Under the pieces are notes generated by a model that had not been told where the DNA came from, ran no database searches, and saw only the letters and a program-made list of their open reading frames with translations. The translations under genes and the position numbers were made by a program. Positions 10,771-63,953 of a stretch of 64,000 nt of DNA are shown in pieces. Each line of letters starts with the position of its first letter. The first letter of the stretch is position 1. Source of the stretch: an uncultured delta proteobacterium (GTDB lineage Bacteria; Myxococcota_A; Polyangia; Polyangiales; Houyiibacteriaceae); the NCBI GenBank assembly GCA_963817725.1, contig CAWFPD010000010.1, forward strand, positions 413,104 to 477,103, written 5' to 3'.

Positions 10771-10794
10771 AGCTGGCGCAAAAGGACAAGCCGG

Positions 10795-10868
<74 letters not shown>

Positions 10869-12291: not shown

Positions 12292-12354
12292 GTTCCTTCT
12301 CTCCTGCGCGCAAGGATTGCCGGCCGTACGAGGAGCGGCCAGCCGTACTTGGGC

Positions 12355-12383
12355 TTGACACTGTATGTAACGTTCGTTACAGG
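12355..12383 (+). promoter_or_regulatory. Candidate promoter plus palindromic TetR-type operator of the enoyl-CoA hydratase operon
   Basis: TTGACA (12355-12360), 17-nt spacer, TACAGG. The spacer contains the perfect inverted repeat TGTAAC-GTTC-GTTACA (12366-12381). GGAG lies 7 nt before the ATG at 12417. Confidence 0.4.
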
Positions 12384-12416
12384 ACTCGAACAAGAGCCCG
12401 AACGCGGAGAAGCTAC

Positions 12417-13852: not shown

Positions 13853-13856
13853 GGAG

Positions 13857-16357: not shown

Positions 16358-16358
16358 C

Positions 16359-17189: not shown

Positions 17190-17195
17190 GCTGAC

Positions 17196-19224: not shown

Positions 19225-19229
19225 GCAGG

Positions 19230-21919: not shown

Positions 21920-22081
21920 GCGAACCAACCCCTCGAAGGCACGGATCGCCTCCTTTTCCTGGTTATCTCCTTGTAAACTTGTTGATGGGGGCCGCGCAAC
22001 CCGGCGCGGCAGGACCCAAGGCAACCCAGGGCGCCCGAAGCCCTCTTTACGCGCCTCCGAAGAGAAACTATACGGCATCCG

Positions 22082-22549: not shown

Positions 22550-22570
22550 CCTGGGATAGTCTGCGTGGAA

Positions 22571-44229: not shown

Positions 44230-44684
44230 ATCGTCACATCTCCGAGTAGCACGATTAGGACCATCCGAACGAGCACTGCTGCCGTGAGAAGGCTGAGCGT
44301 CGTTTCGATGACACCTTGACGCTGGTACCAGATCGCGATGAGGCCCGGAATGATGAAGCCGATGATCGCGCCTTCCGCAAACGGCGTGACCGGGCTTTGG
44401 AGCCACATCCGGAAGACCATGCCCACCAGATAGCCGATGAGAATGGTGAGCGCGGTCCGGCGCCGGCCGTAGACGATCGCGATCTGCGAGAGCCCCTTGA
44501 GGAAGGCAAACGTCACCAGCGCGGCAAGCAAGGTGAGGCCGACATCGACGGGCTTGTCGGCGTAAAGCGCAATGTAGCCGGGCACCACCATGCCGCCGGC
44601 CGCAAGGCCGAACAGCTCCCCGTACAGAAGGCTCGCGGTAAGGCCGAGCCCGATCGACAGGGTCAACAACTCAATTTCTGGCAT
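44226..44684 (-). CDS. pgsC: Poly-gamma-glutamate biosynthesis membrane protein PgsC/CapC
   Basis: 152 aa counted from MPEIELL. GGMVVPGYIALY…IVYGRRRTAL…IIPGLIA is colinear with B. subtilis PgsC. Confidence 0.88.
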   Translation of the reverse strand: MPEIELLTLSIGLGLTASLLYGELFGLAAGGMVVPGYIALYADKPVDVGLTLLAALVTFAFLKGLSQIAIVYGRRRTALTILIGYLVGMVFRMWLQSPVTPFAEGAIIGFIIPGLIAIWYQRQGVIETTLSLLTAAVLVRMVLIVLLGDVTI

Positions 44685-45867
44685 GATTTCTCCCCCGATT
44701 GGCAAAGTATTCGGCCAGCGCCAATCCCGGCCCCGCGATGTTCCCGAGCCCCATGACCAGGGCCGAGGACTCGGCGAGGCCCAGCAGAATTTCGAAGATG
44801 TCGGCAGGATGAGTCTGGTCCACGAAAACCAGCCGTGTCGGGTCCAGGCCGTTTTTCACGGCGGCGCGAGCGAAGATGAATTGTCCGCTTCCGAGCAGCA
44901 CCACTTCATCCGCTTGGGTCCAACGAGCGTACGATTCGGCGAGTTGCTCCGAGCGATTGGCGCGGTCCGAACGGCAGTTGAAGACAGCGATGCGTCTTCG
45001 AAGCTCTCGATGCCTCTGCAATGACTGCTCCCAGATGTATTGCGTCGAGATGGGGTCATTGGCTGCAAACCCATTCACGAAGACGATGGTTCGCCCGAAG
45101 AACTCGACCTCGTCCTCGGTCATGGCGCCGGGGTCGGGTTTGGCCCGACACATCCCTCGAAGAGCGGTTTCGCTGTCGATTCCGAGCTCCTCGCACACCG
45201 CGAGCGCAAGCTCCACATTGTCCTGATGCTCGAGATACGAAAAGCCGGCTAAGTCCTCGGGTGTCACCGGTCGGCTGATCTGCTCGGAGCCTCGTAAGCG
45301 AGAGCCGCGATCTTCGGCAACCAACTGAAACAAGGCGCGGTGCTTGTGCTCCGCGGTGAGAAGAACGCCAGCGGTGGGAACCATGCCGGCAAGCGCAAGC
45401 GCCACGTCTTCTTCGGTGGGCCCCATGACCTCCAAGTGGTCCGGTCGCGCGTTGGTAATCACTCCATGTGTCGCGCGAACGAGCCTAGCTTCGGAGAGCC
45501 ACTGCAACTGCGGTTGCAGCGCCATACACTCGACGACGAGGGCGTCTGCCCGTTGCGCCGCAGCCATCGTGACCGACTGCTTTTGCTCGATGATGTTGGG
45601 GCCGCCCGGCCGGTACACCGGCACCTCGCGGCCGTTGGGCAAGATGAAGCGCGGAACCGTGCCCGTGGTCTTGGCCACGGTACGAATGCCCGCCTCGCGA
45701 AGCCCGCCTGCGATGAGGCGCGTGACACTGGTTTTCCCGCGAGTACCGTTGACGTGGATGCGGATGGGAATGCGCGAGAGCCGACGGCGATGGAGGATCA
45801 GCTCGATCACCCCCAACACGATCAGGGCTCCCGTGGCCCCGAGAAGAATGTAGATTTCTCTGCTCAC
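44671..45867 (-). CDS. pgsB: Poly-gamma-glutamate synthase PgsB/CapB (Mur-ligase-like)
   Basis: An N-terminal TM segment is followed by IRIHVNGTRGKTSVTRL, AKTTGT and GPNIIEQK. By eye it is colinear with B. subtilis PgsB. I prefer the GTG start at 45867. The track ORF begins at TTG 45936. Confidence 0.88.
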   Translation of the reverse strand: MSREIYILLGATGALIVLGVIELILHRRRLSRIPIRIHVNGTRGKTSVTRLIAGGLREAGIRTVAKTTGTVPRFILPNGREVPVYRPGGPNIIEQKQSVTMAAAQRADALVVECMALQPQLQWLSEARLVRATHGVITNARPDHLEVMGPTEEDVALALAGMVPTAGVLLTAEHKHRALFQLVAEDRGSRLRGSEQISRPVTPEDLAGFSYLEHQDNVELALAVCEELGIDSETALRGMCRAKPDPGAMTEDEVEFFGRTIVFVNGFAANDPISTQYIWEQSLQRHRELRRRIAVFNCRSDRANRSEQLAESYARWTQADEVVLLGSGQFIFARAAVKNGLDPTRLVFVDQTHPADIFEILLGLAESSALVMGLGNIAGPGLALAEYFANRGRNHARN

Positions 45868-46228
45868 TCGACTTGCCCCGCTCCTCGAAAGAGGAGGCGG
45901 ACGCGAGCCTCTTACCAAATCGCAACTGCGCAGCAAGCCCCACCACGGATGGGCGCGAGACGGGCTGCGCTTGGGTTTCGTACGCGATCTAGGTTACGAA
46001 GGGGCGGTCCAAAATAGACCTAATGGACGAAAAAAGTTGTAATCAACTGTCGCCCAGCCTCGACTAATACACCCTAAAGGGTTCATAAATGTCAGGAAGA
46101 CCAAAAAGGGAAACGGGGTCTTCGCGACCTTTGGCCGGGCCCCAGGGTCGTCAAAGGTCACTGGAGATAAGCCGGGGCGGGTCGCGTTCGGGGGGACGGC
46201 GGCCCGCCCTGCAACTCCAGCCTCGGGC

Positions 46229-47257
46229 TCACGCAGGACGTCGAAGCACGGTTGCTTCGAGGTGCTGACAGGTTCTCTCGATGCCCTCGTCCACACTGAC
46301 GGCCGGCTCGTAGCCGAGCTCCGTGCGTGCCTTGTCGATGCTGAAATAGTGATGGGTGCACATGTAGCGGATGGCGAACCGGGTCAGTCCGTCCTCCGCA
46401 TTGAGGGTGCCGCCTTTGAGTGTGTCGAAGCCCTCTTTGACGGCCGCGATCGCGTACACGAGCCCTTTGGGAACGCGATACTTGATCGGCGGGAAACCCA
46501 GGCGGGCGGCCACTTTGCGGACGAAGTCCCAGAATGGCATGGGCTCACCGTTGGTGATGAAATACGCCTGCCCTGCGGCGGTGCTTTGCGGACCGCCTGC
46601 GCGTAGAGCCTCATCGGCGAGAATTACCGCATCGACCAGGTTGCTGACGTAGGTGTAGTCCGACAGCCACACGCCGCGGCCGATCTGGACGCGGAGCTGA
46701 CCGGACTGGGCCTTGTCGAGCAGCGCGGGCATGAAGCGGTTGTCGCCCGGGCCGAAGATCACGTGAGGACGAAGAGCGCAAGTGGCTACGCCATCCTTGC
46801 CGTTGGCTGCAAGGACGCGTTTTTCAGCCTCGATCTTGCTGTCTGCGTAGGGCGCCTGCGAGACCGTCGAGTACGGTAGACTCTCGTCCCCGTTTTCGAT
46901 GTCTTTGCCTTCGTAGACCACGCTTCCCGAGCTGATGTAAATGAAGCGCGGAACCCGGTGGCGCTGAGCGCCCTGCAGCATGTTCTCCGTACCCCCGAGA
47001 TTCACCCCCCAGACGACATCCTTTTTGTTCTGCTTGGTATGCACGATCGAGGCATTGTGGATGATCGTGTCGACACCACGGCATGCATCGATGACCGCCG
47101 CTTCGTCGGTAATGTCGATGCGTCGGTAGTCGACTCCGTCGACCGGGCATTCGGGGGACACATCGATCACGATGACCCGGTCGCCACGAGCCTGTAGACC
47201 CCGTGCGATCGCTGCACCGACAAACCCGCAGCCGCCCGTCACCAAGCTCACCGTCAT
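46229..47257 (-). CDS. 3beta-hydroxysteroid dehydrogenase/isomerase family; NSDHL/ERG26-like sterol-4alpha-carboxylate 3-dehydrogenase (decarboxylating) candidate
   Basis: 342 aa. By eye it is colinear with human NSDHL: VTGGCGFVG, SSGSVVYEGKDIENGDESLPY, YADSK, LRPHVIFGPGD, AYFITNGEPMPFWDFVRKV, HYFSIDKARTELGYEP. Confidence 0.75.
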   Translation of the reverse strand: MTVSLVTGGCGFVGAAIARGLQARGDRVIVIDVSPECPVDGVDYRRIDITDEAAVIDACRGVDTIIHNASIVHTKQNKKDVVWGVNLGGTENMLQGAQRHRVPRFIYISSGSVVYEGKDIENGDESLPYSTVSQAPYADSKIEAEKRVLAANGKDGVATCALRPHVIFGPGDNRFMPALLDKAQSGQLRVQIGRGVWLSDYTYVSNLVDAVILADEALRAGGPQSTAAGQAYFITNGEPMPFWDFVRKVAARLGFPPIKYRVPKGLVYAIAAVKEGFDTLKGGTLNAEDGLTRFAIRYMCTHHYFSIDKARTELGYEPAVSVDEGIERTCQHLEATVLRRPA

Positions 47258-47260
47258 GTT

Positions 47261-47935
47261 CTACTCCACGGTGCCAAAGATGATGTCGGGCAGGGGTGTG
47301 ATCGACGCATAATTGCCCGAACGCATGCTGTGGTGGTGCCTGTCGTGCTTGGCCGCGAGCACTCCCAGCGTCTTCAATGGAAAACGGGGAACATCGACCC
47401 CCGCATGGTTGAGAATGTTGAATGCCGTGTACGTGATGAAGAGAGCAGCCAGCGTATAAATGTGCACGCCCCCTACGAGTGCCACCGATCCAAAGAACAA
47501 GCTGAGACCGAGGACGGTTTCGATCGGATGAAGCAAGAGGCTATCGATGACGCGGGGGTTTCGCGCTGCGTGATGGACCGAATGCACCGCTCGAAGGAGC
47601 TTCCACTCGTGGAATGGATAGCGGTGCATGAAGTAGTACGCGAAATCGTAGATCAAAATGACGGTCGCGGCCTCGAGCACGTACCGCCACCAAGCGATGG
47701 GGTGGTCGTAGTACAAATAGTCGCCGAACCCGAACATCAGGAAGAAGATCAGCGCAATGGAGACCGTCGAGTTCAGAGCGACCCGCCAGTAAAGCTCACG
47801 GTCGCTCTTCGAGCGATGGGGGTCGTCGCTAATCAAATACGCGTGACCAGCCGGGGAACGGTAGGCGTACGCGAGGACGGCGATGGCCAAACCGGCCGAT
47901 GCATAGCTCGCGAGAATGACGAACAAGGCCTTCAT
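47261..47935 (-). CDS. Fatty-acid-hydroxylase superfamily di-iron membrane oxygenase; MSMO1/ERG25-like (sterol desaturase family)
   Basis: 224 aa with three His boxes (HRYPFH, HSVHH, HDRHHH). The C-terminal block HAGVDVP…HDRHHHSMRSGNYASI…DIIFGT resembles C-4 methylsterol oxidases. Confidence 0.7.
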   Translation of the reverse strand: MKALFVILASYASAGLAIAVLAYAYRSPAGHAYLISDDPHRSKSDRELYWRVALNSTVSIALIFFLMFGFGDYLYYDHPIAWWRYVLEAATVILIYDFAYYFMHRYPFHEWKLLRAVHSVHHAARNPRVIDSLLLHPIETVLGLSLFFGSVALVGGVHIYTLAALFITYTAFNILNHAGVDVPRFPLKTLGVLAAKHDRHHHSMRSGNYASITPLPDIIFGTVE

Positions 47936-47963
47936 GGGAGCTTCCGGATGATCATGTTACCAC

Positions 47964-49127
47964 CTAAGGAACCATTCTGAGAATCAGCGTACCGGCGACC
48001 ATGAAGGCGAACACCGCCACGGCCGCCAACTGGGAAGCACGCTTGCTGAAGGAAGATTTCACGGCGGACGCTGCGCGAAACGACGTGGAGTTACCGTCGA
48101 GCTCGAGGGGCTCCGCGCTCGCGGGGATGCTTTGGCAAAGGAGGGCGACGCCTCGCCCGACGTCCCTGTCCGACAGGGCCTCGTGCGTGCGCATGTGGAC
48201 CTTGCCCGTTTTCACGTGTGCCATGCAGGAACCGCAAAAACCGGATTGGCACGAGTGAGCCGGGTTCAGACCGGCGACCTGGGCGCACTCGAGCAGCGTC
48301 TTTCCCTCGATGTACGGTACGGTGCGAGAGCGCCCGCCGAGCCAGAGGCTGAAGGCTGGGGGCGAATCAAACGAAGGGAAGCCTGATCGAGCGTCTTGGA
48401 GCCGATCCGGGTCGACCGGGGAAACGAAGCGCTCGACGTGAATGAGCTCTTCATGCGCGCCGGCGTCGATGAGGACGGCCTCGATGAGGTTCATGAACGG
48501 CTCTGGCCCGCACAAGTAGAACTCGGCGACTTCCGTGTCGTGCAACAAGGCGCGCACGTCTCGGGCCGAGAGCTGGCCCCGGTCGGAATCTAGATGATGT
48601 TGAAGGACGACTCTGCCTGGATGCGCCGCCACGATACGGACGAGCTGCTCCGCGTAGATGACCGATGCCCGATCGCGATTCGCGTAAAGCATGGTGATGG
48701 GGCGTTTGGTCGTGGCGAGCGCGCTCTTGAGCAAAGAAATGATTGGCGTGATCCCACTGCCACCAGCGAACAGGAAAAGCGGCGTGCTCGAGCGCGTCTC
48801 GGGATCCAGAACGAAACGGCCCTCGGGAACGCTTGCGCAAATCGAGTCACCGGCTTTGAGCTGGTCGTTCATCCAATTGGATGCGCGGCCCCCTTCTACC
48901 CTTTTTACGGCAATTTCCAGCGGCTCGCCGAGTTCGACACAGCTCGAAAGGGAATAGCAACGGCTGATCTGCCAGCTTTCCCAGGGGAGCCTCAAAGTCA
49001 GGTGCTGGCCCGCACGGTATTGAAACTCGGCCTCGAGCCGTTTTGGAACCGACAGTCGAAAGGAGCTGCAGTCCGCCGTCTCGCGGGTAACTGCCGATAT
49101 CGTCAAGGTGTGGAGCGGGACTTCCAT
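47964..49127 (-). CDS. FNR-type FAD/NAD(P)H reductase fused to a plant-type [2Fe-2S] ferredoxin, with a C-terminal membrane anchor
   Basis: The start MEVPLHTL overlaps the TetR stop. It has the RCYSLSS (FAD) and GGSGITP (NAD) motifs and the cluster ligands CQSGFCGSC…C. The last ~25 aa are hydrophobic (LAAVAVFAFMVAGTLILRMV). Confidence 0.8.
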   Translation of the reverse strand: MEVPLHTLTISAVTRETADCSSFRLSVPKRLEAEFQYRAGQHLTLRLPWESWQISRCYSLSSCVELGEPLEIAVKRVEGGRASNWMNDQLKAGDSICASVPEGRFVLDPETRSSTPLFLFAGGSGITPIISLLKSALATTKRPITMLYANRDRASVIYAEQLVRIVAAHPGRVVLQHHLDSDRGQLSARDVRALLHDTEVAEFYLCGPEPFMNLIEAVLIDAGAHEELIHVERFVSPVDPDRLQDARSGFPSFDSPPAFSLWLGGRSRTVPYIEGKTLLECAQVAGLNPAHSCQSGFCGSCMAHVKTGKVHMRTHEALSDRDVGRGVALLCQSIPASAEPLELDGNSTSFRAASAVKSSFSKRASQLAAVAVFAFMVAGTLILRMVP

Positions 49128-49807
49128 CAAGTCTCCGAAAGTCCGGCGAGTTGCAAAGCGGTGGCGAGGCGCTCCGGCCGACAGTCGCTCCGAAGCAAAT
49201 GCCGGATGGCGGCATCCACGACGCGGTCCGGCGGCTCTTTGGCGCCCCGATTCATCCACAGCGCGAGCCTGACTTGCTGGGTGGCGATGGCCATTCGCGC
49301 CATCAGCTCCGGATCCTCATCGATGAAGGTTCCTTCTCGAATTCCTCTCCGAAACAAGTCGGCAAACAATGCAAGGCCGGCACCCAACGCCTCGACCTGC
49401 TCGGGGCTGCGCAAGAGCTCGACGGTCGACCATGCCGTCACCTCCTTGAGCTGCATCCGGGTGAAGTCATGGCGGTGCATGAAGAATCGGAGCTGCGCGC
49501 GTGTTCCCGCCACCAACTGTTCCAGCACCGGCATGTCCTCTTGGATCACGCCCTGCACGAGCCCCATCACTTCGGCGAGCCGGCGTCGGTGCACTGCGCG
49601 GTAGATTTCCCATTTCGACTCGAGCACTCCGTAGAGAGTCGTCAGAGAGACCCCCGCTTCAGCCGCAATCCGCTGCACCCTCGTGGCTTCGTAGCCGTCG
49701 TCCCCGAAGACTCGCTCCGCGGCGTCGAGAATGGCTTCTCGGTAGAGCTCTCGCTTTTTGTCCCTGAGATTTTGCTGCGGGCTTGCTGGAGCGACGGAGG
49801 CCGGCAT
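49127..49807 (-). CDS. TetR/AcrR family transcriptional regulator
   Basis: 226 aa. The HTH region is REAILDAAERVFGDDGYEATRVQRIAAEAGVSLTTLYGVLESK. Confidence 0.85.
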   Translation of the reverse strand: MPASVAPASPQQNLRDKKRELYREAILDAAERVFGDDGYEATRVQRIAAEAGVSLTTLYGVLESKWEIYRAVHRRRLAEVMGLVQGVIQEDMPVLEQLVAGTRAQLRFFMHRHDFTRMQLKEVTAWSTVELLRSPEQVEALGAGLALFADLFRRGIREGTFIDEDPELMARMAIATQQVRLALWMNRGAKEPPDRVVDAAIRHLLRSDCRPERLATALQLAGLSET

Positions 49808-49814
49808 CGTCAGA

Positions 49815-49847
49815 ATGCTAGTGTGGAAAAGCAGAATGTCAATTCTG
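49815..49847 (-). promoter_or_regulatory. Candidate promoter plus palindromic operator of the TetR-reductase-oxygenase-3betaHSD operon
   Basis: The minus strand reads CAGAAT-TGAC-ATTCTG (inverted repeat) containing TTGACA, then a 16-nt spacer, TAGCAT, and 7 nt to the ATG at 49807. A further CAGAATG half-site lies at 49811. Confidence 0.4.
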
Positions 49848-49874: not shown

Positions 49875-51098
49875 TCACAGGCGGTCGTGCCCGGGAATGT
49901 CGGGAAGCTTGATGACTGACATTTGCGGCATGAGGTCCTCCTCGGCGAGGAGGGTTCGGAGCACCACCTGGCCCCGTCGATGCCCTTGTGTGCAGATCCA
50001 ATTCTTCACGCCCGGGTCCTGACGGCTCGCGTAGATCCGGAATGCGCCGTCCTCATCGAAGACGACCTGGCGATTATTCAGAGCGACCGGATGATGGCGA
50101 TAGTCGCCCGCGCGAAGGTAGTGATCGAAGATCTGACACGACCAATACCGGCAGGGCACGTCCTTGCCTTCGACCAAAATGGCTTCGTCGTCGGCGAGCT
50201 TGAAGGAGACGCCTGCGTATCCGATGCCTGGGCCCGGCAAGTTGTTGGCGACCACCTTCGGATCGACCATCTCGAAAACCTCATCCGGGCTGTATTGGTC
50301 GTGTCTTTCTTCGTCGACCACCAATGCCCCGTCCTCACCGATTCGGGTCGGGGTAGCGTGGGCGTCACCCTCGTGTTCGATGTTGCTCATGCCGACAATG
50401 GCGGATACGCCCAAGCCCGCGTCGACGGTGTCGTGAACAAACTCGATGATGCGGTCGAGACCTTCGCCGAGGTCGGCCTCCGTGTATTGCTCTGGGGGCG
50501 GTATGCTCTGGGCGCAATCGATGGTCATGGTGGCAGCCTCGTATCTACCCTTGTCGACCTCGATCACGCACTCGGGAAAATACTGCCGCGTCATGACGAA
50601 TGGCCGATTGCCCTTGAGCTCCAGCCAATTCCGGGCTCCTTGGGGACGCTTTGCGCTGATGTGAATCGTTGCGACCTCCTGACCGCCGTCCTCCTCGAAT
50701 GCGATGTCCTTGTCGATGAGGAAGCTCGCCATGAAACGCATGCCTTCCTCGTCGCTGGCATAGACGACGATGGAGAAAAAAATGTCCTCTCCGCGCCGAA
50801 GCGACAAGACGTAGTCTAGCTGCTCATCGAGCTTGGCTTCGTGGTAAAGGGTGTCGGGTCCGTCACCGACGAAGCTCCGAATCGGAGTGAACATACGAGC
50901 GAGCACGGGATGCGCCCTATCGGCCTCCATTTCCAGCTCGTAGCCGCCCGCGATCAACGATGCGAGGTAACGGAAGCCATCTGCCCTCTCACGCGCGCTT
51001 CGTGCGCCGAGCGGGCCCACGATCTTCTGGCCGACCTCCTTGAGGCCATCGGCAAAGCGATTCCATGCGGCTTGGCTCGATGTGATTTCGTCAGGCAT
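49875..51098 (-). CDS. DUF1214-like protein of unknown function
   Basis: 407 aa. The N-terminal pattern RERADGFRYLASLIAGGYELEMEADRAHP… is what I recall for DUF1214-containing proteins. Its start overlaps the upstream SDR gene by 8 nt. Confidence 0.45.
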   Translation of the reverse strand: MPDEITSSQAAWNRFADGLKEVGQKIVGPLGARSARERADGFRYLASLIAGGYELEMEADRAHPVLARMFTPIRSFVGDGPDTLYHEAKLDEQLDYVLSLRRGEDIFFSIVVYASDEEGMRFMASFLIDKDIAFEEDGGQEVATIHISAKRPQGARNWLELKGNRPFVMTRQYFPECVIEVDKGRYEAATMTIDCAQSIPPPEQYTEADLGEGLDRIIEFVHDTVDAGLGVSAIVGMSNIEHEGDAHATPTRIGEDGALVVDEERHDQYSPDEVFEMVDPKVVANNLPGPGIGYAGVSFKLADDEAILVEGKDVPCRYWSCQIFDHYLRAGDYRHHPVALNNRQVVFDEDGAFRIYASRQDPGVKNWICTQGHRRGQVVLRTLLAEEDLMPQMSVIKLPDIPGHDRL

Positions 51099-51963
51099 CT
51101 TTCGGTCCCCATCTGTACATCTTCTGAAGGATTCGCTCGGCCATACGATTGGGCATCAGCGCGAACATTCGAGCCGCTGTGCCTGCCGACCTTGGGGCGA
51201 AGTATCGAGCTTTCGGTTCGCGCGACGATGCGATTCGCACGATCAAGGCCCCCACTTCCTCTGGCGTGATGGCGCTCTCCAACTGTTGTTGGGCGAACGC
51301 ATCGAGGTGATCCATCAGCTCGCGGTATGGATTGCTTTGATCGTGACGCAGGTGCAGTCCGGCTTCTCTGCTCTTGTCGAACGCAGGCGTATCGACGAAA
51401 CCAGGAACGACGACGCTGAGCTGAATGTTCCAAGGTGCGAGCTCGAGACGCATGCAAGCGTTCATGGCTTCCATCCCTCCTTTCGTGGCCGCATAGGACG
51501 AAGCAAACGGGGCACCCACGTAGCGGCTGAGGGAGCTGATGTTGATCACGCGGCCCCCGCCTTGGGCTCTCATGATCGGAGTGAGCTCCCCGATCAGTTG
51601 CATGGCTGAGAGCAGATTGACGTCGAACACGTGCCGGAGCGCTTTCCGATCGAGTTGCTCGAGCGCATAGGGCGGACCATAGCCCGCATTGTTGACGAGC
51701 AGATCGACTCGGCCGAACCTAGCCAGGGCTTTCCGGACCAAAGCCGAGGTCTGGTCCGCGTCGCTCAAGTCTGTGGGCACGCTCAGGGCGCTGCCTCCTT
51801 TGCTTTCGATTTCAGCGACGATTTCGTCGAGGCGATCCTTGCGCCTGGCCGCAAGCGCGACCGAGAAACCCGCTTCTGCCAAACAGCGAGCGGTCGCCTC
51901 CCCGATGCCAGACGACGCTCCAGTCACGATCGCGGCCTTGATTGGTTGCTCTTGCGCGTTCAT
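51091..51963 (-). CDS. Short-chain dehydrogenase/reductase (SDR)
   Basis: 290 aa with VTGASSGIG, NNAG and YAATKGG. Confidence 0.85.
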   Translation of the reverse strand: MNAQEQPIKAAIVTGASSGIGEATARCLAEAGFSVALAARRKDRLDEIVAEIESKGGSALSVPTDLSDADQTSALVRKALARFGRVDLLVNNAGYGPPYALEQLDRKALRHVFDVNLLSAMQLIGELTPIMRAQGGGRVINISSLSRYVGAPFASSYAATKGGMEAMNACMRLELAPWNIQLSVVVPGFVDTPAFDKSREAGLHLRHDQSNPYRELMDHLDAFAQQQLESAITPEEVGALIVRIASSREPKARYFAPRSAGTAARMFALMPNRMAERILQKMYRWGPKDA

Positions 51964-51985
51964 GCGGCTCTAGGTTTTGCGGGCT

Positions 51986-53257
51986 ATGAGGTCCCGTGCT
52001 ACCCGACGCAACCCGTTGGCCATGGCCGCACCCCCGCCACACCGTCCTCGCCTCGTCCGATGGCTCAACCGATTGGGACCCGTGGTCGCATCTCGCTGGC
52101 CGTCCCTCGACCCGGACGACATCATCCGTACCGCAGCGCGAAGGGCCAAGTCCGACGAGCTCGGCGATCATGGCTTCATGGAGAGGCTTCCCGTCTTGGC
52201 GGAAGCGGTGGAGCGCGAGGCGAATCTTCATTGGATCGGCCGGTTGGCGGTGCGTGAGTCGTTGGTGACCGGGTTGGAAAGCCGGTTTTCCGTCTATCGC
52301 CGTCGCGCGCTCGAGCCCGAGCTCGCGGATGTGCCGATCGAAAAGCCCCTCTTCATCGTGGGCTTCCCACGGACGGGAACGACGATCCTCTTCAATTTGC
52401 TGGCGCAGGATCCGGCCAATCGGGCGCCTCTCGGATGGGAAGTTCAGTTTCCCGACCCTCCACCCGAGCCCGAAGCCTATTCGAGCGACCCCAGAATCGA
52501 ACGCGCTCGCAAATATTTCGGCCAGATGGATACGATGGCGCCCACGCTTGCTTCGATCCACGAGGTGGGCGCCGAGCTTGCTCAGGAGTGCATGCCGATC
52601 ATGGCGCATACGCTCCTGAGCCCGCAGCCAAGCATTGCGTACAACATTCCCGGCTATCAGGACTGGGTCGACCTTCAAGACGCGGCCCCCGCCTACATCT
52701 ATCACCGCCACTTCCTCGAGCATCTACAGAGCCGGTACATGAAAGAGCGCTGGGTGCTCAAGAGCCCAGTGCATTTGGCAACGCTCGACGCGTTGCTCCG
52801 TGAGTATCCGGACGCCAGGCTGATCTTCACGCATCGAGATCCGGTCAAAACGATTCCATCTCTCGCGAGCTTGGTCTATACGGTGCGCGGCATCGTGAGC
52901 GATTCCGTCGATCCGAGACGGATCGGCCCGGAGCAATTCGAGTGGTGGGCCAAGGCGCTCGATCACGCCATGCAGGTGCGTGCAAGACATCCCGACAAGG
53001 CGGACCATTTCATGGACATTCATTTCGAGGAGGTGATCGCCGATCCCATCGCAGCCCTTCGCCGCGCCTATGACCACTTTCAGATGCCGTGGTCGCAGGA
53101 GGCCGAGGATCGAATGCGTGCCTTCTTGGCGGCGAACCCGCGAGACAAGCACGGTGCGCACCGGTACGCCCTCGAGGACTTCGGCCTCGAGCTCGGCGCG
53201 ATCCGCGAGCGATTCGCCGACTACTGCAAGCGTTTCGACGTCCCCTTGGCGCTCTGA
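51986..53257 (+). CDS. Sulfotransferase family protein (Sulfotransfer_3 / mycobacterial Stf-like)
   Basis: It has the PAPS-binding loop PLFIVGFPRTGTTILFNLLAQDP, preceded by the family-typical N-terminal helical region (…LAEAVEREANLHWIGRLAVRESL…). The start is uncertain (TTG 51977, ATG 51986 or 52022). Confidence 0.75.
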   Translation: MRSRATRRNPLAMAAPPPHRPRLVRWLNRLGPVVASRWPSLDPDDIIRTAARRAKSDELGDHGFMERLPVLAEAVEREANLHWIGRLAVRESLVTGLESRFSVYRRRALEPELADVPIEKPLFIVGFPRTGTTILFNLLAQDPANRAPLGWEVQFPDPPPEPEAYSSDPRIERARKYFGQMDTMAPTLASIHEVGAELAQECMPIMAHTLLSPQPSIAYNIPGYQDWVDLQDAAPAYIYHRHFLEHLQSRYMKERWVLKSPVHLATLDALLREYPDARLIFTHRDPVKTIPSLASLVYTVRGIVSDSVDPRRIGPEQFEWWAKALDHAMQVRARHPDKADHFMDIHFEEVIADPIAALRRAYDHFQMPWSQEAEDRMRAFLAANPRDKHGAHRYALEDFGLELGAIRERFADYCKRFDVPLAL

Positions 53258-53323
53258 CTGGTTCCTGTAAGTCGCCGAATCCATTGACAGCTCTTGGCCG
53301 GAAGGCTAGGAACGAAAAACAGA

Positions 53324-54916
53324 ATGACTATTCCGAATCAGGTCGAGCACGGCGCGCATCATGCTGGCGACCGCACGCACATCGAGTGCATCGACCCGGC
53401 GACCCGAGAACGCCTCGGCCTGGTCCGGGTCGACACGGCCGGGGATGTCGAGGCCGCAGTCGCACGTGCCCAAGCCGCCCAGAAACAGTGGCGCAAGACC
53501 TCGTTCGAAGAGCGTCGCGAGGTGCTCCGCAAGCTCATGGCCTACACGGTCGAGCACAAAGACGAAATCTGTCTCACCATCCAGCGAGATTCGGGCAAGA
53601 CGCGGGAGAACGCCCTGCTCGGCGAGATCTGGACGACCTGCGAGAAGTTTCGCTGGATCATCAAGAATGGGGAGAGGCACCTTCGCCCAGAGCGGGTGTC
53701 CTCCGGGCTCCTCGTCCACAAGAAGGCGCGGTTGGAGTTCCATCCCCTGGGTGTCGTGGCCGCGATCATTCCCTGGAACTACCCGTTCCAGAACATGGTC
53801 AATCCGATCATTCCGGCGTTGATGACTGGCAACGCGATCGTAATCAAGCCTTCCGAATGGGTCGCATGGTCTAGCCAGCGGTTCGTGGACGCGTTTCGAG
53901 GTGTCATCGCCGACTCAGGACACGACCCCGATTTGATCCAGGTCGTGCAGGGATACGGGGCCACGGGCGCGTCGCTCGTGCGCTCCCCAGTGGACATGAT
54001 CTTGTTCATAGGCTCGGTAAAAAACGGCCGGCGCGTAATCGAAGGCAGCGCCGAGCGCGTCACGCCAGTGGTGATGGAGCTTGGCGGCAAGGACGCCTTC
54101 ATCGTTTGCGACGATGCAGACCTCGAACAGGCGCTCCACGCCGCGCTCGCCGGGTGCTACGTGAATTGTGGACAGAATTGTGTCGCCTCGGAGCGTATTC
54201 TCGTTCACGACAGCATCTACGACGAGTTCGAGCGTCGAGCCGCTACGCTGGTGACCGGGCTTCGGCAAGGCAACGGCAGGGAAGCTCTAGTCGACGTCGG
54301 AGCCATCATCACTCCACTCCAGCTCGACGTCATCGACGACGCGGTGCGAGGGGCAATTGCGCAAGGCGCTCGTCTGGTGGCTGGCGGAAAGCGGACGCGG
54401 ACCGACCAGGGTGACTACTTCGAGCCCACCATCTTGGCCGACGTGACGCCCGAGATGGACATTGCCCAAGAGGAAGTATTCGGACCGGTCATGCTTCTCA
54501 TGCGCTTCGGGGACGACTCCCAGGCGGTCGAGATTGCCAACAGCGTATCCTATGGGCTTTCATCCTCGGTCTTTTCGAAGGATCGTCGTCGAGCGCGCAA
54601 GATTGCCGAGGAGCTCGAAACGGGAATGTCGGCGATCAACGAATTCGGAGGCATCACCTACATGGCCCAAGACCTCACGTTTGGTGGCGTCAAAGCATCG
54701 GGCTACGGCAGGATGAACGGACGCGAGGGTTTGCGCTCGATGTGCAACATCAAGGCGGTCATCGACGATCGAATTCCCATCCATCGCGCAAACGAGATGT
54801 ATCCCGTGGGTCCGGCCCTCTATTCGACCTTCAGCGGTGTGATCGACCTGGTCTACGGAAGAAGCTTCAAACGCCGCTGGCAGGGGCTGATGAAGCTGCT
54901 GCGACGAAAGCCGTAG
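53324..54916 (+). CDS. NAD(P)+-dependent aldehyde dehydrogenase
   Basis: It has ALDH motifs: WNYPF, the catalytic VMELGGKDA glutamate region, a NCGQNCVASER cysteine region, and EEVFGPV. Confidence 0.88.
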   Translation: MTIPNQVEHGAHHAGDRTHIECIDPATRERLGLVRVDTAGDVEAAVARAQAAQKQWRKTSFEERREVLRKLMAYTVEHKDEICLTIQRDSGKTRENALLGEIWTTCEKFRWIIKNGERHLRPERVSSGLLVHKKARLEFHPLGVVAAIIPWNYPFQNMVNPIIPALMTGNAIVIKPSEWVAWSSQRFVDAFRGVIADSGHDPDLIQVVQGYGATGASLVRSPVDMILFIGSVKNGRRVIEGSAERVTPVVMELGGKDAFIVCDDADLEQALHAALAGCYVNCGQNCVASERILVHDSIYDEFERRAATLVTGLRQGNGREALVDVGAIITPLQLDVIDDAVRGAIAQGARLVAGGKRTRTDQGDYFEPTILADVTPEMDIAQEEVFGPVMLLMRFGDDSQAVEIANSVSYGLSSSVFSKDRRRARKIAEELETGMSAINEFGGITYMAQDLTFGGVKASGYGRMNGREGLRSMCNIKAVIDDRIPIHRANEMYPVGPALYSTFSGVIDLVYGRSFKRRWQGLMKLLRRKP

Positions 54917-56509
54917 ATGCAGCACTACGAGTACATCGTGGTCGGCGGTGGTTCGGCCGGTTGCATCGTGGCAGCAGAGCTTGCCAAAGACGGTGTAACA
55001 CGCGTGCTACTGCTCGAGAGCGGACCTGCCGCGGAGGATCACCCCGAGACGCTCGTTGCGCACGGGTACAAAGAGGCGTTCGTCAACGACGCGGTGATGG
55101 GCGAGCGTTTCTCCGTACCTCAGGAGCATGCCGGAAGACAACGGGTCTTTGCCGGGACGGGAACCGTCATGGGCGGAAGCGGTTCGGTCAACGGCATGGT
55201 CTACACGCGGGGTGCGCGGCAAGACTACGCCGAGTGGCCAGTCGGATGGCATTGGGATGACGTCGTCCCCGATTTCGAGGCAATCGAGCGACGGATCAGG
55301 CCCCACCGCCGTGCTCCGACGCAATGGACCGAAGCATGTATCGCCGCCGCGCAGGCGCACGGCTTCGACCTCAAAAAGGATCTCAACGATGGCGATATGA
55401 GCAACGTCATCGGATACGAATGGATGTCTTACGAGGAAGAGACGCGGCGCAGCTCGTACGTTGCCTTCATCAAAGATCCGGGTGAGCGCCCGAATCTCAC
55501 GGTGCTCCCGCAGGCTCGCGTCGATCGGATCGTCTTCACGGTCGATGCAAGAGCAAGAGCAGTGGAGTTCGAGCACCGAGGAGCGCTCGAGCGCGCGGAG
55601 GCAGCCCGGGAGATCGTTCTTTGCGCAGGCGCGCTTGAGACTCCGAAGCTCTTGATGCTCTCCGGAATTGGCCCGGCAGCGCACTTGCGCTCATTCGGCA
55701 TACCGGTCGTCGCCGATCGGCCGAGTGTCGGGGCCGGGCTCCACGATCATCCGAACGTGCCCATCTTCTTCAAGACGCGCCGGGACATCGACTGCTTCTA
55801 TCCTCAGCTCTACAGCTTTTTCCGCACGAATCCCGCCTCCGGCCTGCCTCCTTCGCAAAGTGATACCTGCTACGTCTACTGGCCGGCTCCATCCGCCATG
55901 CGTCAAATGATGCAGCGCATGCTTCCACCAAAGCTCATCCCGCATCGGTTGTACGGTCCTCGCTCGCGGGCGTGGACCCGCTCCATCATCGGCGGAGCAT
56001 TCAAGATCGGTGCGCTGCAGCGGTTCACCGACCACATGTTCGGCATCATCTTGATTCTTGGAAAGCCGAAGAGCCGAGGCACTCTTCGCCTCCAGTCGAC
56101 CGATGTGAACGAGCAGGCTCTAATCGATCCCGCCTACTACTCGGACCCGCAAGACATGGACACCATGGTGCGAGGTGTGCGCATAGCCCGCGGGATTGGC
56201 GGTGCTAGCGGTCTGTCAGCCTGGCGCCCCAAGGAGCTCATGCCAGGGCCCCGCGTTCAGAGCGACGACGCGGTCAGGCGGTACGTCCGCAAGAACACGA
56301 TCACCACCTATCATTTCGCGGGAACCTGTCGCATGGGAGAAAGCGAGCCCGATGCAGTCGATCCCCAACTTCGCCTGCGCGGAGTGCGGGGGCTCAGAAT
56401 CGCGGATGCCTCGGTGATTCCCTGGACACCCGTCTCTGCCCTCAACGCGCCGAGCATGCTGATCGGCTACCGCGCAGCTCGACTGATCGAGGCGGAATCC
56501 GGCCGGTAA
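54917..56509 (+). CDS. GMC family FAD-dependent oxidoreductase
   Basis: 530 aa with N-terminal YEYIVVGGGSAGCIVAAELA, GGSGSVNGMVY and the C-terminal HFAGTCRMG…RIADASVIP. It starts immediately after the ALDH stop. Confidence 0.88.
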   Translation: MQHYEYIVVGGGSAGCIVAAELAKDGVTRVLLLESGPAAEDHPETLVAHGYKEAFVNDAVMGERFSVPQEHAGRQRVFAGTGTVMGGSGSVNGMVYTRGARQDYAEWPVGWHWDDVVPDFEAIERRIRPHRRAPTQWTEACIAAAQAHGFDLKKDLNDGDMSNVIGYEWMSYEEETRRSSYVAFIKDPGERPNLTVLPQARVDRIVFTVDARARAVEFEHRGALERAEAAREIVLCAGALETPKLLMLSGIGPAAHLRSFGIPVVADRPSVGAGLHDHPNVPIFFKTRRDIDCFYPQLYSFFRTNPASGLPPSQSDTCYVYWPAPSAMRQMMQRMLPPKLIPHRLYGPRSRAWTRSIIGGAFKIGALQRFTDHMFGIILILGKPKSRGTLRLQSTDVNEQALIDPAYYSDPQDMDTMVRGVRIARGIGGASGLSAWRPKELMPGPRVQSDDAVRRYVRKNTITTYHFAGTCRMGESEPDAVDPQLRLRGVRGLRIADASVIPWTPVSALNAPSMLIGYRAARLIEAESGR

Positions 56510-57358: not shown

Positions 57359-57359
57359 T

Positions 57360-58265: not shown

Positions 58266-58324
58266 TTGCTTAGCCTCGGCGCGCATCATAGTACGGAGCC
58301 GCCATCTGGCTATGGAGAAACTCG

Positions 58325-60459: not shown

Positions 60460-60480
60460 GTCCGTTCCGGGACTGGTGCT

Positions 60481-62573: not shown

Positions 62574-63953
62574 CTACGGGATTCTCCTGCGGTACCTGAT
62601 CCGAATGGGGGGCTTGGGTCCGAGGACCAAACCCTGAAAGTCGGTTTCGATCGGATCGCCGACCAACTCGAAGTCATAGCGATTCAGCAGAGCCGCGATG
62701 ATCGTCTTGATCTGCAAGATGGCAAAGGCGTTACCCATGCACTTGTGCCGCCCACCTCCAAAGGAAATGTACGCGAACGGACGCTTGTCTTCTTCACGCC
62801 CGGGGCCATACCGATCCGGGTCGTATTCGAGCGCGTTCTTGAATACCTCGTCGTCGCGATGCGCCACCATGGGCGAGACGGCGACCCAGTTGCCCTTTTT
62901 GACCTGGTAGCCGAGGATCAGGCAGTCCTCGAGGACGGCTCGCAGCAGAATGAAGAGCGGCGGATGAATGCGGAGCGCCTCCTTGACTGCGCTTTCCGTC
63001 TTCTCCAGATCCCGAAGCGACTGAAAAGTGTAGCTCTCCTCGTCTGCGTAACGTGCACGGATCTCGTTTCGGACCTCCTCTAGGCACCGAGGATGACGCA
63101 ACAGCTCGATCAACGTCCAGGCCGTGGTGACGGAGCTCGTGTGATGGCCGGCGAACATGGCTGCGACGAGCATTCCCGTGATCTCGTGGTCGCTGAGCTT
63201 GCTACCATCCGAGTACTCCGCGTCCATCAAGGTCTGAAGGAAGTCTTCTCCTCGATAGCCCGACCGCTTCCGCTTTTCGACGATCTCGGAGACCATTTGC
63301 CCCAGGCGCTTGCGAGCTCGGTCACGGCGCCGGAACGCCGGGATGGGCAAGTAGGGATGAATGTAGCCCCATGCCACGATGCCGCGTTCCAGGTCGTAGT
63401 AGACCTTGGCAAACTCCTCGCTCATCTCATTGCGAAACTCTTTGCCGAGCAGGCAGCTGCTCGAGGTGAAGTTCGTGAGCATGCCGAAGAATGCCGAGGC
63501 CTCGATCTCGCCTTCCTCCCCCCAGTCGGCGATGATGTCTGCTGTCTCCCGCGCTACAATTTCGGTGTAGGTCCGCATGCGGTTGTTGCGAAGCGCTGGA
63601 TAGAGCATGTGCATTTGCTCGGCCATACGAGCAGGCTCGGCCCCGTAGGCGACCCCTTCACCGAATACCGGCACCATCATCTTGTAGGCCGCGTTTGGAC
63701 TGAGGACCTCGTCGGGCAGCCTGAAAAGCGCCTCGTGCGCCGCGGGCCCCGAGAAGAGGATCATGTCCTTACCAAACAGTTTGAATCTCCCGACGTGGCC
63801 GCACTCGTCGTAGGTCCGCTGTAGCAAACCGGTCGTGTCCTTCACGAAGGCGAGTGTGTGACCGATCAACGGCAGCCCGCCTTTGAGCCTCGGCGGCCTC
63901 TTGGCCTTGCCCGCAGTGATGGGGGTGGTCGTGGTTCGTGCTGGTGCCGTCAC
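62574..63953 (-). CDS. cyp51: Sterol 14alpha-demethylase, cytochrome P450 family 51
   Basis: 459 aa with a GTG start and GGAG upstream. By eye it is colinear with M. tuberculosis CYP51. Matches include the B' region VPVFGEGVAYGA, then WGEEGEIEASAFF…TSSSCLLGKEFR, YLPIPAFRRRDRAR, the CYP51 I-helix signature MFAGHHTSS, and the heme loop FGGGRHKCMGNAFA. Confidence 0.9.
   Translation of the reverse strand: MTAPARTTTTPITAGKAKRPPRLKGGLPLIGHTLAFVKDTTGLLQRTYDECGHVGRFKLFGKDMILFSGPAAHEALFRLPDEVLSPNAAYKMMVPVFGEGVAYGAEPARMAEQMHMLYPALRNNRMRTYTEIVARETADIIADWGEEGEIEASAFFGMLTNFTSSSCLLGKEFRNEMSEEFAKVYYDLERGIVAWGYIHPYLPIPAFRRRDRARKRLGQMVSEIVEKRKRSGYRGEDFLQTLMDAEYSDGSKLSDHEITGMLVAAMFAGHHTSSVTTAWTLIELLRHPRCLEEVRNEIRARYADEESYTFQSLRDLEKTESAVKEALRIHPPLFILLRAVLEDCLILGYQVKKGNWVAVSPMVAHRDDEVFKNALEYDPDRYGPGREEDKRPFAYISFGGGRHKCMGNAFAILQIKTIIAALLNRYDFELVGDPIETDFQGLVLGPKPPIRIRYRRRIP

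Follow-up and report, generated by a model that had tools for sequence, protein, structure and literature searches.

The way in which C-4 methyl groups are removed from sterols in bacteria is disputed, as is the question of whether bacterial roots exist for the eukaryotic ERG25–ERG27 route. Both questions are raised by a 64-kb stretch of contig CAWFPD010000010.1 (the window, i.e. the whole of the DNA analysed) from an uncultured marine myxobacterium. Its minus strand carries four consecutive genes, which encode a TetR-family regulator (TetR), an NAD(P)H-FAD-[2Fe-2S] reductase (RED), a membrane di-iron oxygenase (OXY), and an extended short-chain dehydrogenase/reductase (SDR) of the 3beta-hydroxysteroid dehydrogenase family (HSD). 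An aldehyde dehydrogenase gene (ALDH) and a gene for a GMC-family flavoprotein oxidoreductase (GMC) lie on the plus strand. An earlier note on this DNA had interpreted the four minus-strand genes as a self-contained module for sterol C-4 demethylation. On balance, the two gene groups probably form a TetR-controlled module for stepwise sterol C-4 demethylation, organized in two transcription units with one operator. The sterol interpretation is now the best supported one; its support comes from sterol-cluster context and from a CYP51 gene, not from the motif matches cited in the note.

A conserved gene set and its place in sterol clusters

All open reading frames of the four-gene operon were found where the earlier note had placed them (Table 1), with the domain content it had described (Pfam), and their junctions can be read straight from the sequence. 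TetR and RED overlap by one nucleotide (TGATG, in which the A is shared by the TGA of TetR and the ATG of RED), RED and OXY are separated by 28 nucleotides with GGAAG ahead of the OXY ATG, and the OXY/HSD junction reads TAG-AAC-ATG. A 642-kb ENA contig and a contig of the metagenome-assembled genome (MAG) GCA_049288685.1 match the window over the approximately 20 kb compared.

Conservation was assessed in 53 species-level loci with a full OXY; the homologous loci compared are designated by L and a number. The OXY homologues that share 61–98% identity belong to uncultured Myxococcota with the labels Polyangiales, Myxococcales, or Sandaracinaceae, among which is SG8_38. RED is located directly upstream of OXY in 48 of the 53 loci and in all distant relatives (L052–L056), while HSD is located directly downstream of OXY in 45. 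This RED-OXY-HSD adjacency is more than chance. The regulator is present in 46 loci, ALDH in 39, and GMC in 37; in 23 loci, ALDH-GMC is divergent from and adjacent to TetR, with a short shared control region. Gene orders are rearranged in the distant relatives: in L052 (66% identity), the genes ALDH-HSD-RED-OXY come after TetR on a single strand; in L056 (54% identity), TetR leads into a co-directional ALDH-RED-OXY; and L054 and L055 contain RED-OXY. The conserved functional unit is, therefore, larger than four genes. The module is not self-contained, as had been thought, since ALDH and GMC belong to the same conserved, co-regulated unit. Neither an ERG27 nor an ERG28 homologue occurs in the conserved core. 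Two further SDRs listed in the note, the one of the accessory block in Table 1 and one at 29560–30357, are present. The accessory sulfotransferase/SDR/DUF1214 block separates TetR from ALDH in the window and in 15 other loci (15–16 of 53), and its SDR occurs in only 15 of the 53. The latter may be a candidate 3-ketoreductase, and the block as a whole is presumed to be accessory. Beside the TetR gene of the operon, L052 (2473–5082, minus strand) and L056 (3810–6386, minus strand) each encode a large protein of about 860 amino acids without any Pfam or NCBIfam match.

The regulator matches TetR_N (2.2e-11). The palindrome CAGAAT-N4-ATTCTG, allowing up to one mismatch, has only two matches in 64 kb versus 0.11 expected, and 49 of 52 loci have it between positions −39 and −49 relative to TetR. 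Among the relatives that bear the insertion between TetR and ALDH, 11 of 14 carry one site before TetR and a second one at the 5' end of ALDH; in 10 of these 11, the two sites are the only ones of the locus. From these sites we infer that TetR controls both units, TetR-RED-OXY-HSD and ALDH-GMC, via one shared candidate operator. The sulfotransferase/SDR/DUF1214 insertion goes together with the operator duplication.

A more distant relative of OXY, P0282 (236 amino acids, 40% identity), lies inside a compact co-directional sterol cluster of a Sandaracinaceae MAG (L067). The genes of this cluster encode, in order, a Bsr-like FAD reductase, a squalene epoxidase–oxidosqualene cyclase fusion, ERG24, a squalene epoxidase–squalene synthase fusion, ERG2, the OXY homologue, a CYP51–ferredoxin fusion, ALDH, and GMC. 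The ERG2/OXY and OXY/CYP51 junctions are one-nucleotide overlaps. The gene order is the same in a second Sandaracinaceae MAG (L072, 911-kb contig), and the OXY homologue sits between ERG2 and CYP51–ferredoxin in both. A third contig (L068) breaks off after ERG2 but agrees with this cluster up to that point, and carries a fusion of HMG-CoA reductase with an SdmB-like domain (HMGR–SdmB-like fusion) upstream. The proteins of the window share 38–40% (OXY), 50–53% (ALDH), and 54–57% (GMC) identity with those of L067 and L072.

The cluster of Sandaracinus amylolyticus, a cultured cholesterol producer (L071), contains the HMGR–SdmB-like fusion followed by a Rieske/VanA_C gene, which, judging by position and domain content, is presumably SdmA, and by Bsr. 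OXY, ALDH, and GMC are absent from this syntenic cluster. Conversely, the Rieske protein of L071 has no match in clusters L067, L068, and L072, while the MAG clusters keep the HMGR–SdmB-like fusion (SdmB model, 298 bits). Judged by cluster content, this is the signature of non-orthologous displacement, with OXY, GMC, and ALDH apparently replacing SdmA, the C-4 methyl oxidase, in some clusters. The fusion protein itself (828–875 amino acids; L068 6393–8879, L071 5030–7657, L072 about 6620–8806) combines, in a single polypeptide, the first committed step of the mevalonate pathway with a late step of the sterol pathway.

The cluster of Polyangium aurulentum (L073, CP079217.1) contains an SdmA-type Rieske gene together with an ALDH gene (2139–3710), whose product is 49% identical to the ALDH of the window; OXY and GMC were not found in this cluster. 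SdmA of Enhygromyxa salina alone stops at the 4-methylaldehyde (PMC10202945). An ALDH beside SdmA fits with such stalling, which suggests a role for the sterol-cluster ALDH, namely that of an unrecognised aldehyde-to-acid helper for Rieske-type C-4 oxidation.

The window also contains a CYP51 gene, 12.8 kb from the module. Its product matches CYP51 of Methylococcus capsulatus with an E-value of 1.3e-137 and that of Mycobacterium tuberculosis with 6e-110, and shares 55% identity with the CYP51–ferredoxin protein of L067. On these similarities, this P450 is a true CYP51. On a contig reaching past the end of the window (L069, 5864–9167), a second TetR gene overlaps the CYP51 start and heads the CYP51 operon. 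Just past the window end, a divergent gene for a 63-residue ferredoxin faces CYP51; this ferredoxin is 41–43% identical to the CYP51-fused ferredoxin domains of L067, L071, and L072.

The earlier note had named, as a finding that would speak against the proposed role, a genome encoding the Rieske-type SdmA/SdmB system together with an operon deletion that has no sterol phenotype. Identity of the module with SdmAB was examined and rejected at the locus level: HSD reaches 74 bits against the SdmB model (NF052578) and the only nearby Rieske protein, a 319-residue Rieske/KshA_C oxygenase encoded past the window end in L069, reaches 46 bits against the SdmA model (NF052579), the cut-off being 600 bits for both. 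The latter protein is thus not SdmA. This result covers the locus only. None of the four operon proteins reached an NCBIfam equivalog cut-off.

Table 1. Positions of the module genes and associated features in the 64-kb window.
Feature	Position	Strand	Description
HSD	46229..47257	-	Extended-SDR 3beta-hydroxysteroid dehydrogenase family, 342 aa; NSDHL/OleD type; proposed 3beta-dehydrogenase/C-4 decarboxylase
OXY	47261..47935	-	Membrane di-iron oxygenase, FA_hydroxylase superfamily, 224 aa; proposed sterol C-4 methyl hydroxylase
RED	47964..49127 from ATG (open reading frame reaches GTG at 49259)	-	NAD(P)H-FAD-[2Fe-2S] reductase, 387 aa; proposed electron donor to OXY
RED C-terminal hydrophobic tail anchor (putative)	47979..48029	-	Residues 367–383
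TetR-family regulator	49127..49807	-	226 aa; first gene of operon; TetR_N and TetR_C_24
Candidate TetR operator 1	49832..49847		Perfect palindrome CAGAAT-N4-ATTCTG, 25–40 nucleotides upstream of TetR ATG
Candidate TetR operator 2	53320..53335		One mismatch; overlaps ALDH gene start
Accessory block between TetR and ALDH	49875..53257		DUF1214 protein 49875–51098 (-), classical SDR 51091–51963 (-), sulfotransferase 51977–53257 (+)
ALDH	53324..54916	+	Aldehyde dehydrogenase, 530 aa (public gene call; open reading frame reaches 53294); proposed 4-formyl to 4-carboxy step
GMC	54917..56509	+	GMC-family flavoprotein oxidoreductase, 530 aa; proposed 4-hydroxymethyl to 4-formyl step
CYP51 (sterol 14alpha-demethylase) homologue	62574..63953	-	Same sterol-related island

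Affinities of the encoded proteins

OXY matches the Pfam family FA_hydroxylase (PF04116; 2.4e-25, 89.9 bits versus a gathering cut-off of 31) and is, therefore, a member of this superfamily. Residues H104/H109, H118/H121/H122, H197/H200/H201/H202, and N176-H177 are invariant across the family. The His boxes and the GNYAS motif cited in the note do correspond to those of genuine MSMO1 proteins (OXY/MSMO1: HRYPFH/HRLLHH, HSVHH/HKVHH, NHAGVDVP/VHSGYDIP, HDRHHH/HHDFHH, and GNYAS/GNYAS). These reference proteins were retrieved with a provisional human MSMO1 sequence as the query, to which the best of them is 95% identical. BLASTP aligned OXY with genuine MSMO1 over 156 residues (33% identity, E-value 1e-16; OXY residues 75–222), and identity to ERG25/MSMO1 over the full/trimmed alignment is 25%. 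OXY is also much shorter than ERG25/MSMO1 (224 versus about 293 amino acids) and misses the N-terminal part of ERG25. Of the proposed ERG25-like nature of OXY, the part that stands is that MSMO1/ERG25 is the nearest named family. Colinearity does not stand, as only residues 75–222 align and the similarity is at the family level.

Profile searches agree with this assignment. The OXY family profile scored 45–65 bits with genuine MSMO1 proteins (E-values down to 6e-13 at library size) and 31 bits with yeast ERG25 (provisional reference sequence). The scores for CH25H, ERG3, CrtZ, and SC5D were 13, 12, 9, and 5 bits, respectively (all four provisional reference sequences). The sole NCBIfam match of OXY was OlsE (23 bits versus a cut-off of 475). 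Scs7p fatty-acid 2-hydroxylase, which is represented in the PDB, was not detected by the profile at E ≤ 10, nor was any other PDB entry, and a sequence search of the PDB with OXY likewise gave no match. An AlphaFold model of OXY (12-sequence alignment, pLDDT 68) yielded no Foldseek match in the PDB better than E 2.6. The affinity comparison took in ERG3/SC5D, CH25H, CrtZ, Scs7p, and OlsE. By these scores, OXY is ERG25-like and clearly closer to MSMO1/ERG25 than to the families compared.

A search of 1.84 billion cluster representatives with the OXY family profile retrieved 168 clusters below 1e-10. The closest 150 representatives of these are nearly all bacterial and 220–260 amino acids long, and among these 150 the NCBI name is nothing more specific than 'sterol desaturase family protein'. 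With its score, MSMO1 would rank within the roughly 170 closest clusters of the 1.84 billion proteins. A rough neighbour-joining tree placed OXY in a bacterial group of 225–255-residue proteins, apart from the ERG25/MSMO1 clade; this group also takes in L052–L056, proteins from Haliea and Tara, a Plesiocystis pacifica homologue, and the sterol-cluster proteins. By profile score, OXY is nearer to a sterol enzyme than to the carotenoid and fatty-acid hydroxylases compared; in the rough tree, it belongs to a bacterial clade of its own outside ERG25/MSMO1.

HSD matches the Pfam family 3Beta_HSD (2.6e-61, 207 bits), and its translation carries the GxxGxxG motif and the YxxxK catalytic pair as TGGCGFVG and YADSK. 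Human NSDHL (6jkg) was the best match among PDB sequences (1.4e-37; next match 1e-18). NSDHL thus leads the solved structures by 19 orders of magnitude in E-value, and HSD may be a member of ERG26/NSDHL. Two of the blocks that the note had cited, SSGSVVYEGKDIENGDESLPY and RPHVIFGPGD, align with human NSDHL in 6jkg, while the third falls beyond the crystallised construct. Membership in olefin synthesis as an OleD was considered for HSD and rejected (249 bits versus a cut-off of 580); OleA, OleB, and OleC were not identified around the operon (37–58 kb of the window) or in the annotated related loci. OleD is a beta-keto/beta-hydroxy-acid enzyme, the 2-alkyl-3-oxoalkanoate reductase of olefin synthesis, and therefore handles the same functional-group chemistry as the step proposed for HSD. 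From these matches, HSD appears to belong to an NSDHL/OleD branch.

The domain order of RED is FAD_binding_6 - NAD_binding_1 - Fer2 (Pfam), i.e. an FNR-like module followed by a C-terminal plant-type ferredoxin domain. The motifs RCYSLSS, GGSGITP, and CQSGFCGSC...C in its translation place RED in the FNR-type class with a plant-type [2Fe-2S] cluster. The score with the NCBIfam model PaaE (219 bits versus a cut-off of 421) makes RED a member of the PaaE class, not an equivalog; KshB and Rv3230c are presumably members of the same class. The hydrophobic tail reported for RED is real and conserved, being present in every operon-linked homologue. The Kyte-Doolittle maximum over 17 residues is 2.25–3.1 in 50 of 50 distinct homologue tails, and the tail is kept in homologues only 43–46% identical to RED, including those of L050, L052, and L054–L056, in which the tail sequence has diverged. 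The last approximately 45 residues extend past all solved homologues, none of which aligns beyond residue 342. This tail is most naturally read as a membrane anchor, which may couple RED to OXY at the membrane.

ALDH belongs to the Pfam family Aldedh, and the nearest NCBIfam model is PRK09407 (418 bits, below cut-off). GMC possesses the GMC_oxred_N/C domains and scores 264 bits against the NCBIfam model BetA (cut-off 732).

Proposed reactions and competing explanations

The conserved ALDH and GMC partners imply stepwise oxidation rather than three turnovers of an ERG25-type enzyme. In the proposed pathway, electrons from NAD(P)H would pass via FAD to the [2Fe-2S] cluster of RED, held at the membrane beside OXY by its C-terminal helix. 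OXY would hydroxylate the C-4 methyl group of a 4-methyl or 4,4-dimethyl sterol, GMC would oxidise the 4-hydroxymethyl group to the aldehyde, and ALDH would convert the aldehyde to the 4-carboxylate. HSD would then oxidise the 3beta-hydroxyl group, and the resulting beta-keto acid would lose CO2. The 3-ketone may be re-reduced, by HSD, the SDR of the accessory block, or an unlinked enzyme, or may be left as such; HSD, an unlinked enzyme, or no reduction appears preferable, because the SDR occurs in so few loci and outside the core. Together with the CYP51–ferredoxin unit, the module would represent an inducible sterol-processing island. In this scheme, we infer which substrate is used, how the three oxidations are divided, how electrons reach OXY, what TetR binds, and which physiological role is served.

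A more far-reaching version is tentative, and we hold it at slightly below an even chance. Here, the locus would exemplify a further bacterial C-4 route, the first one based on a di-iron FA_hydroxylase rather than a Rieske oxygenase, in which OXY performs the first oxidation only and is followed by GMC, ALDH, and an NSDHL-type decarboxylase. This route would replace SdmA in some clusters and, in the window, would take the form of a TetR-inducible island, next to CYP51, for removal of the methyl groups at C-4 and C-14 from sterols that are either acquired or intermediates.

Whether such an island processes acquired or intermediate sterols or takes part in constitutive de novo biosynthesis is nearly balanced, and we lean slightly to processing because of the two TetR switches, the lack of early pathway genes nearby, and the island character. 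Biosynthesis is favoured by the facts that Myxococcota are sterol producers and that the homologues of the OXY/GMC/ALDH trio are biosynthetic.

Several observations weigh against a C-4 demethylation module. Its support comes entirely from the comparative genomics of MAGs. As far as sequence comparison goes, OXY is not an ERG25 orthologue and falls in a small separate bacterial clade; the tree backbone has no bootstrap support, and for this reason the tree is used solely to state that the clade is separate. Among NCBIfam models, HSD scores higher with OleD than with every sterol-enzyme model. Plesiocystis pacifica, a sterol producer, encodes its OXY homologue (41% identity) away from sterol genes, with a fatty-acid desaturase and a MerR regulator as neighbours. 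Genes for oxidosqualene cyclase (OSC), squalene epoxidase, ERG24, and ERG2 were absent from the 64-kb window and the 8 kb beyond it, and none of the best 120 OSC matches (L067 OSC as the query) is located on the multi-Mb contigs bearing the operon. The absence of SdmA is established at the level of clusters L067, L068, and L072. Finally, the experiments of the Welander laboratory attribute the C-4 demethylation of cultured Myxococcota to SdmAB(C).

The strongest competing explanation, which we nonetheless regard as unlikely, assumes the same enzymes but another carbon. OXY, GMC, and ALDH would oxidise a terminal methyl group of the sterol side chain (C-26/27), of another isoprenoid, or of an alkyl lipid to an acid that enters beta-oxidation, and HSD would be an ordinary 3beta-HSD/isomerase making a 3-keto-4-ene, such as Rv1106c, the 3beta-HSD/isomerase of cholesterol catabolism. 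A hydroxylase with a GMC alcohol dehydrogenase and an ALDH is the classic set for such a task (alkBFGHJKL), and two TetR regulators suggest substrate-inducible catabolism. The island also encodes BphC/HsaC-like and BphD/HsaD-like enzymes, a KshA_C-type Rieske protein, esterases, an acyl-CoA ligase, and an SCP-x-type thiolase.

Relatives outside Myxococcota bear on both explanations. The pairing of an OXY homologue with a 3beta-HSD-family protein, which counts in favour of the C-4 demethylation module, recurs in Gammaproteobacteria (L063, L064, and L066). In the cultured Haliea sp. E1-2-M8 (L063, JAUTDR010000018.1), the OXY homologue is accompanied by an SdmB/HpnA-like SDR, a CYP51-like P450 with a ferredoxin, a KstD-like flavoprotein (598 bits), three luciferase-like monooxygenases, three SDRs, a TetR, and two TonB-dependent receptors; the KstD-like gene and the receptors suit a catabolic role. 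Such a gene set would suit a strain that takes up methylated sterols or triterpenoids and breaks them down. On a Tara Oceans contig (L064), the OXY-HSD pair occurs with ALDH, GMC, P450, and steroid-5alpha-reductase-like genes. In a gammaproteobacterial MAG (L066), the pair (HSD 46% identical to that of the window) lies near a gene for an MMPL transporter with a sterol-sensing domain and near an 815-residue FA_desaturase gene. From their gene content, all three loci look catabolic or transformative rather than biosynthetic. Terminal-methyl oxidation leaves unexplained, however, why the trio occurs in biosynthetic sterol clusters exactly where SdmA is missing, and why an ALDH accompanies SdmA in P. 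aurulentum. The tight coupling of OXY to an NSDHL/OleD-type enzyme fits decarboxylation better, the second P450 of the window is not CYP125-like, and neither HsaAB nor KstD was identified among the window genes scanned.

Quite improbable, in our estimate, is a role outside steroid metabolism, in which OXY would hydroxylate or desaturate a membrane lipid (fatty acyl, ornithine lipid, ceramide, alkylglycerol, or carotenoid), HSD would be an OleD-like 3-oxo/3-hydroxy-acid reductase, and ALDH and GMC would be ordinary neighbours. The sterol-cluster trio, the CYP51 and ferredoxin neighbourhood, and the shared operator argue against chance neighbours. OleD and OlsE are the best NCBIfam matches of HSD and, as the only one, of OXY, but both scores are far under the model cut-offs. 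Scs7p went undetected and CrtZ is not similar, although the unspecific NCBI name of the OXY clade would accommodate such a function, as would the fatty-acid desaturases encoded beside the P. pacifica homologue and near the L066 pair.

Finally, a betI-betB-betA unit for conversion of choline to glycine betaine, with RED-OXY-HSD as an unrelated neighbour, would match TetR, ALDH, and GMC in gene types and in weak hits to the respective models, but is effectively refuted by scores far below the equivalog cut-offs (BetA 264 versus 732, BADH 327 versus 669, and BetI 19 versus 201 bits), by the presence of the same ALDH and GMC orthogroups in sterol clusters, and by the apparent co-transcription of ALDH with HSD-RED-OXY in L052.

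Relation to known systems and neighbouring genes

The sterol C-4 demethylation module proposed here resembles the eukaryotic ERG25/MSMO1, ERG26/NSDHL, and ERG27/HSD17B7 complex in several ways: its oxygenase is a di-iron FA_hydroxylase-type protein that shares the His boxes and the GNYAS motif, the partner of this oxygenase is an NSDHL-like extended SDR, and, in the proposed chemistry, a methyl group is converted to a carboxylate before decarboxylation. Compared with the eukaryotic enzyme, OXY is a 224-residue protein without the N-terminal region of ERG25, belongs to a bacterial clade of its own, and shares 25–33% identity. The eukaryotic complex is served by cytochrome b5 and its reductase, whereas the module has a dedicated tail-anchored FAD/[2Fe-2S] reductase as the proposed donor. 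The presence of GMC and ALDH suggests that OXY leaves the second and third oxidations to these partners, ERG27 and ERG28 are absent from the core, and the module is under putative TetR control.

With the SdmA/SdmB(/SdmC) system of Methylococcus, Enhygromyxa, and Calothrix (PMC10202945), the module shares the same proposed net reaction and the same position in syntenic clusters. In both cases, decarboxylation is assigned to an SDR of the 3beta-HSD superfamily, as a proposal in the case of HSD. Unlike SdmA/SdmB, the module has no Rieske oxygenase, and its HSD is of the NSDHL/OleD branch. The reaction and the enzyme superfamilies are, accordingly, already known; the route of the module most likely differs from both the eukaryotic and the known bacterial ones.

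ERG25/ERG26 homologues in myxobacteria were noted in 2009 (Desmond & Gribaldo, PMC2817430), in 2016, and in 2021 (Hoshino & Gaucher, PMC8237579). The novelty of the ERG25/ERG26-like idea is, therefore, lower than the earlier note implied. The myxobacterial ERG25–27 homologues of PMC2817430 and PMC8237579 probably represent the same or overlapping families and are described in the accessible portions of these papers as syntenic with sterol genes. The same portions give no biochemical test, and mention neither a dedicated reductase, nor GMC/ALDH partners, nor a TetR regulon, nor SdmA displacement. Hoshino and Gaucher (PMC8237579) infer that the myxobacterial homologues are ancestral to the eukaryotic genes. 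By contrast, the Welander laboratory found only SdmAB(C), and cultured Myxococcota are said to lack the eukaryotic set (PMC10202945; bioRxiv 10.1101/2024.11.01.621555). SG8-38-type MAGs are missing from the supplements of Lee et al. No FA_hydroxylase/GMC/ALDH sterol system or comparable operon was found in the published literature searched, and we also found no description there of the tail-anchored reductase of the OXY clade, its GMC/ALDH partners, the shared TetR operator, or SdmA displacement.

Two further systems are similar in organization. DesA3-Rv3230c of Mycobacterium tuberculosis also comprises a membrane di-iron enzyme encoded beside a dedicated reductase. We take Rv3230c to have the same FAD/NAD(P)H/[2Fe-2S] domain make-up as RED. 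DesA3 differs from OXY in being a member of the FA_desaturase family, not FA_hydroxylase, with a fatty acyl-CoA substrate. According to the title of bioRxiv 10.1101/2022.04.26.489556, Rv1019 is a negative transcriptional regulator of the Rv3230c-Rv3229c operon. The AlkB-AlkJ-AlkH system of the Pseudomonas putida OCT plasmid displays the division of labour proposed for the module (di-iron hydroxylase, GMC alcohol dehydrogenase, and ALDH), but has a hydroxylase of another family, a rubredoxin carrier, alkane substrates, and no decarboxylating SDR.

The module is a concrete, cloneable candidate for an ERG25-like bacterial system and names all the partners needed for reconstitution in the lanosterol-producing E. 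coli assay that already exists, offering a bacterial answer to electron supply for ERG25-type enzymes. Should the more far-reaching version be correct, no other prokaryotic system would come closer to the eukaryotic ERG25/ERG26 pair, and the module would, as such, bear on the disputed myxobacterial origin of eukaryotic sterol synthesis. A further possibility is that 4-methylsterols in the environment are demethylated by marine Myxococcota and Halieaceae, which would matter for the interpretation of sterane biomarkers.

The CYP51 operon continues with a gene for a 273-residue protein (61740–62561, minus strand), which is translationally coupled downstream of CYP51 and whose start overlaps the stop codon of the next gene. 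This protein has no Pfam, NCBIfam, or PDB match; its location makes it a candidate partner for the reaction that follows C-14 demethylation (an analogue of a Delta14 or 8,14 reductase). The same operon further encodes, at 59008–61740 (minus strand), a LipL-like beta-lactamase-fold esterase of 419 amino acids and an amine-oxidase/CrtI/HpnE-like flavoprotein of 483 amino acids. A paralogous esterase, 30% identical to the former, adjoins the second P450 at 19230–20531. The latter has 587 residues, is CYP97/CYP3/CYP102-like with an N-terminal extension of about 140 residues, and since it is not CYP125-like, it is of no help in deciding between catabolism and biosynthesis. Both genes belong to a lipid-metabolism cluster (11107–23527), which further encodes an SCP-x-type thiolase, an alpha/beta hydrolase, an acyl-CoA ligase, an SDR, and an aldo-keto reductase.

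Directly next to GMC, at 56519–58289 (minus strand), are genes for a BphC/HsaC-like extradiol dioxygenase (BphC 305 bits, HsaC 237 bits) and a BphD/HsaD-like meta-cleavage hydrolase (HsaD 190 bits, BphD 166 bits), all scores being below the cut-offs. They are absent from this position in L005. By their similarity, the two enzymes might cleave the ring of an aromatised steroid or a different catechol. Other sulfur-related genes of the window, besides the sulfotransferase of the accessory block, encode a second sulfotransferase (38099–39013), a TauE sulfite exporter (37328–38068), and a PAPS-reductase-domain protein (5691–6581). Sterol sulfation by the sulfotransferases is conceivable, judging from their annotation.

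Poly-gamma-glutamate genes follow HSD in 38 of the 53 relatives. In the window (42952–45936, minus strand), they comprise genes for a PgsB/CapB-like Mur ligase (44671–45936), CapC (44226–44705), and a 484-residue protein, and form a conserved neighbourhood with no obvious functional link to the module. The region 6678–10868 (minus strand) contains 23S rRNA (6926–9927) and 5S rRNA (6678–6794) genes and two tRNA genes (10410–10482 and 10795–10868). A 16S rRNA gene does not occur upstream of the 23S rRNA gene, where the next gene is the thiolase at 11107, so that the rRNA arrangement is unlinked. This stretch explains the low-GC, skewed part of the composition profile. Close to the beginning of the window, at 1516–5687 (plus strand), a DabB-like protein (Proton_antipo_M) and DabA (PF10070, 927 bits) are encoded as an inorganic-carbon transporter pair.

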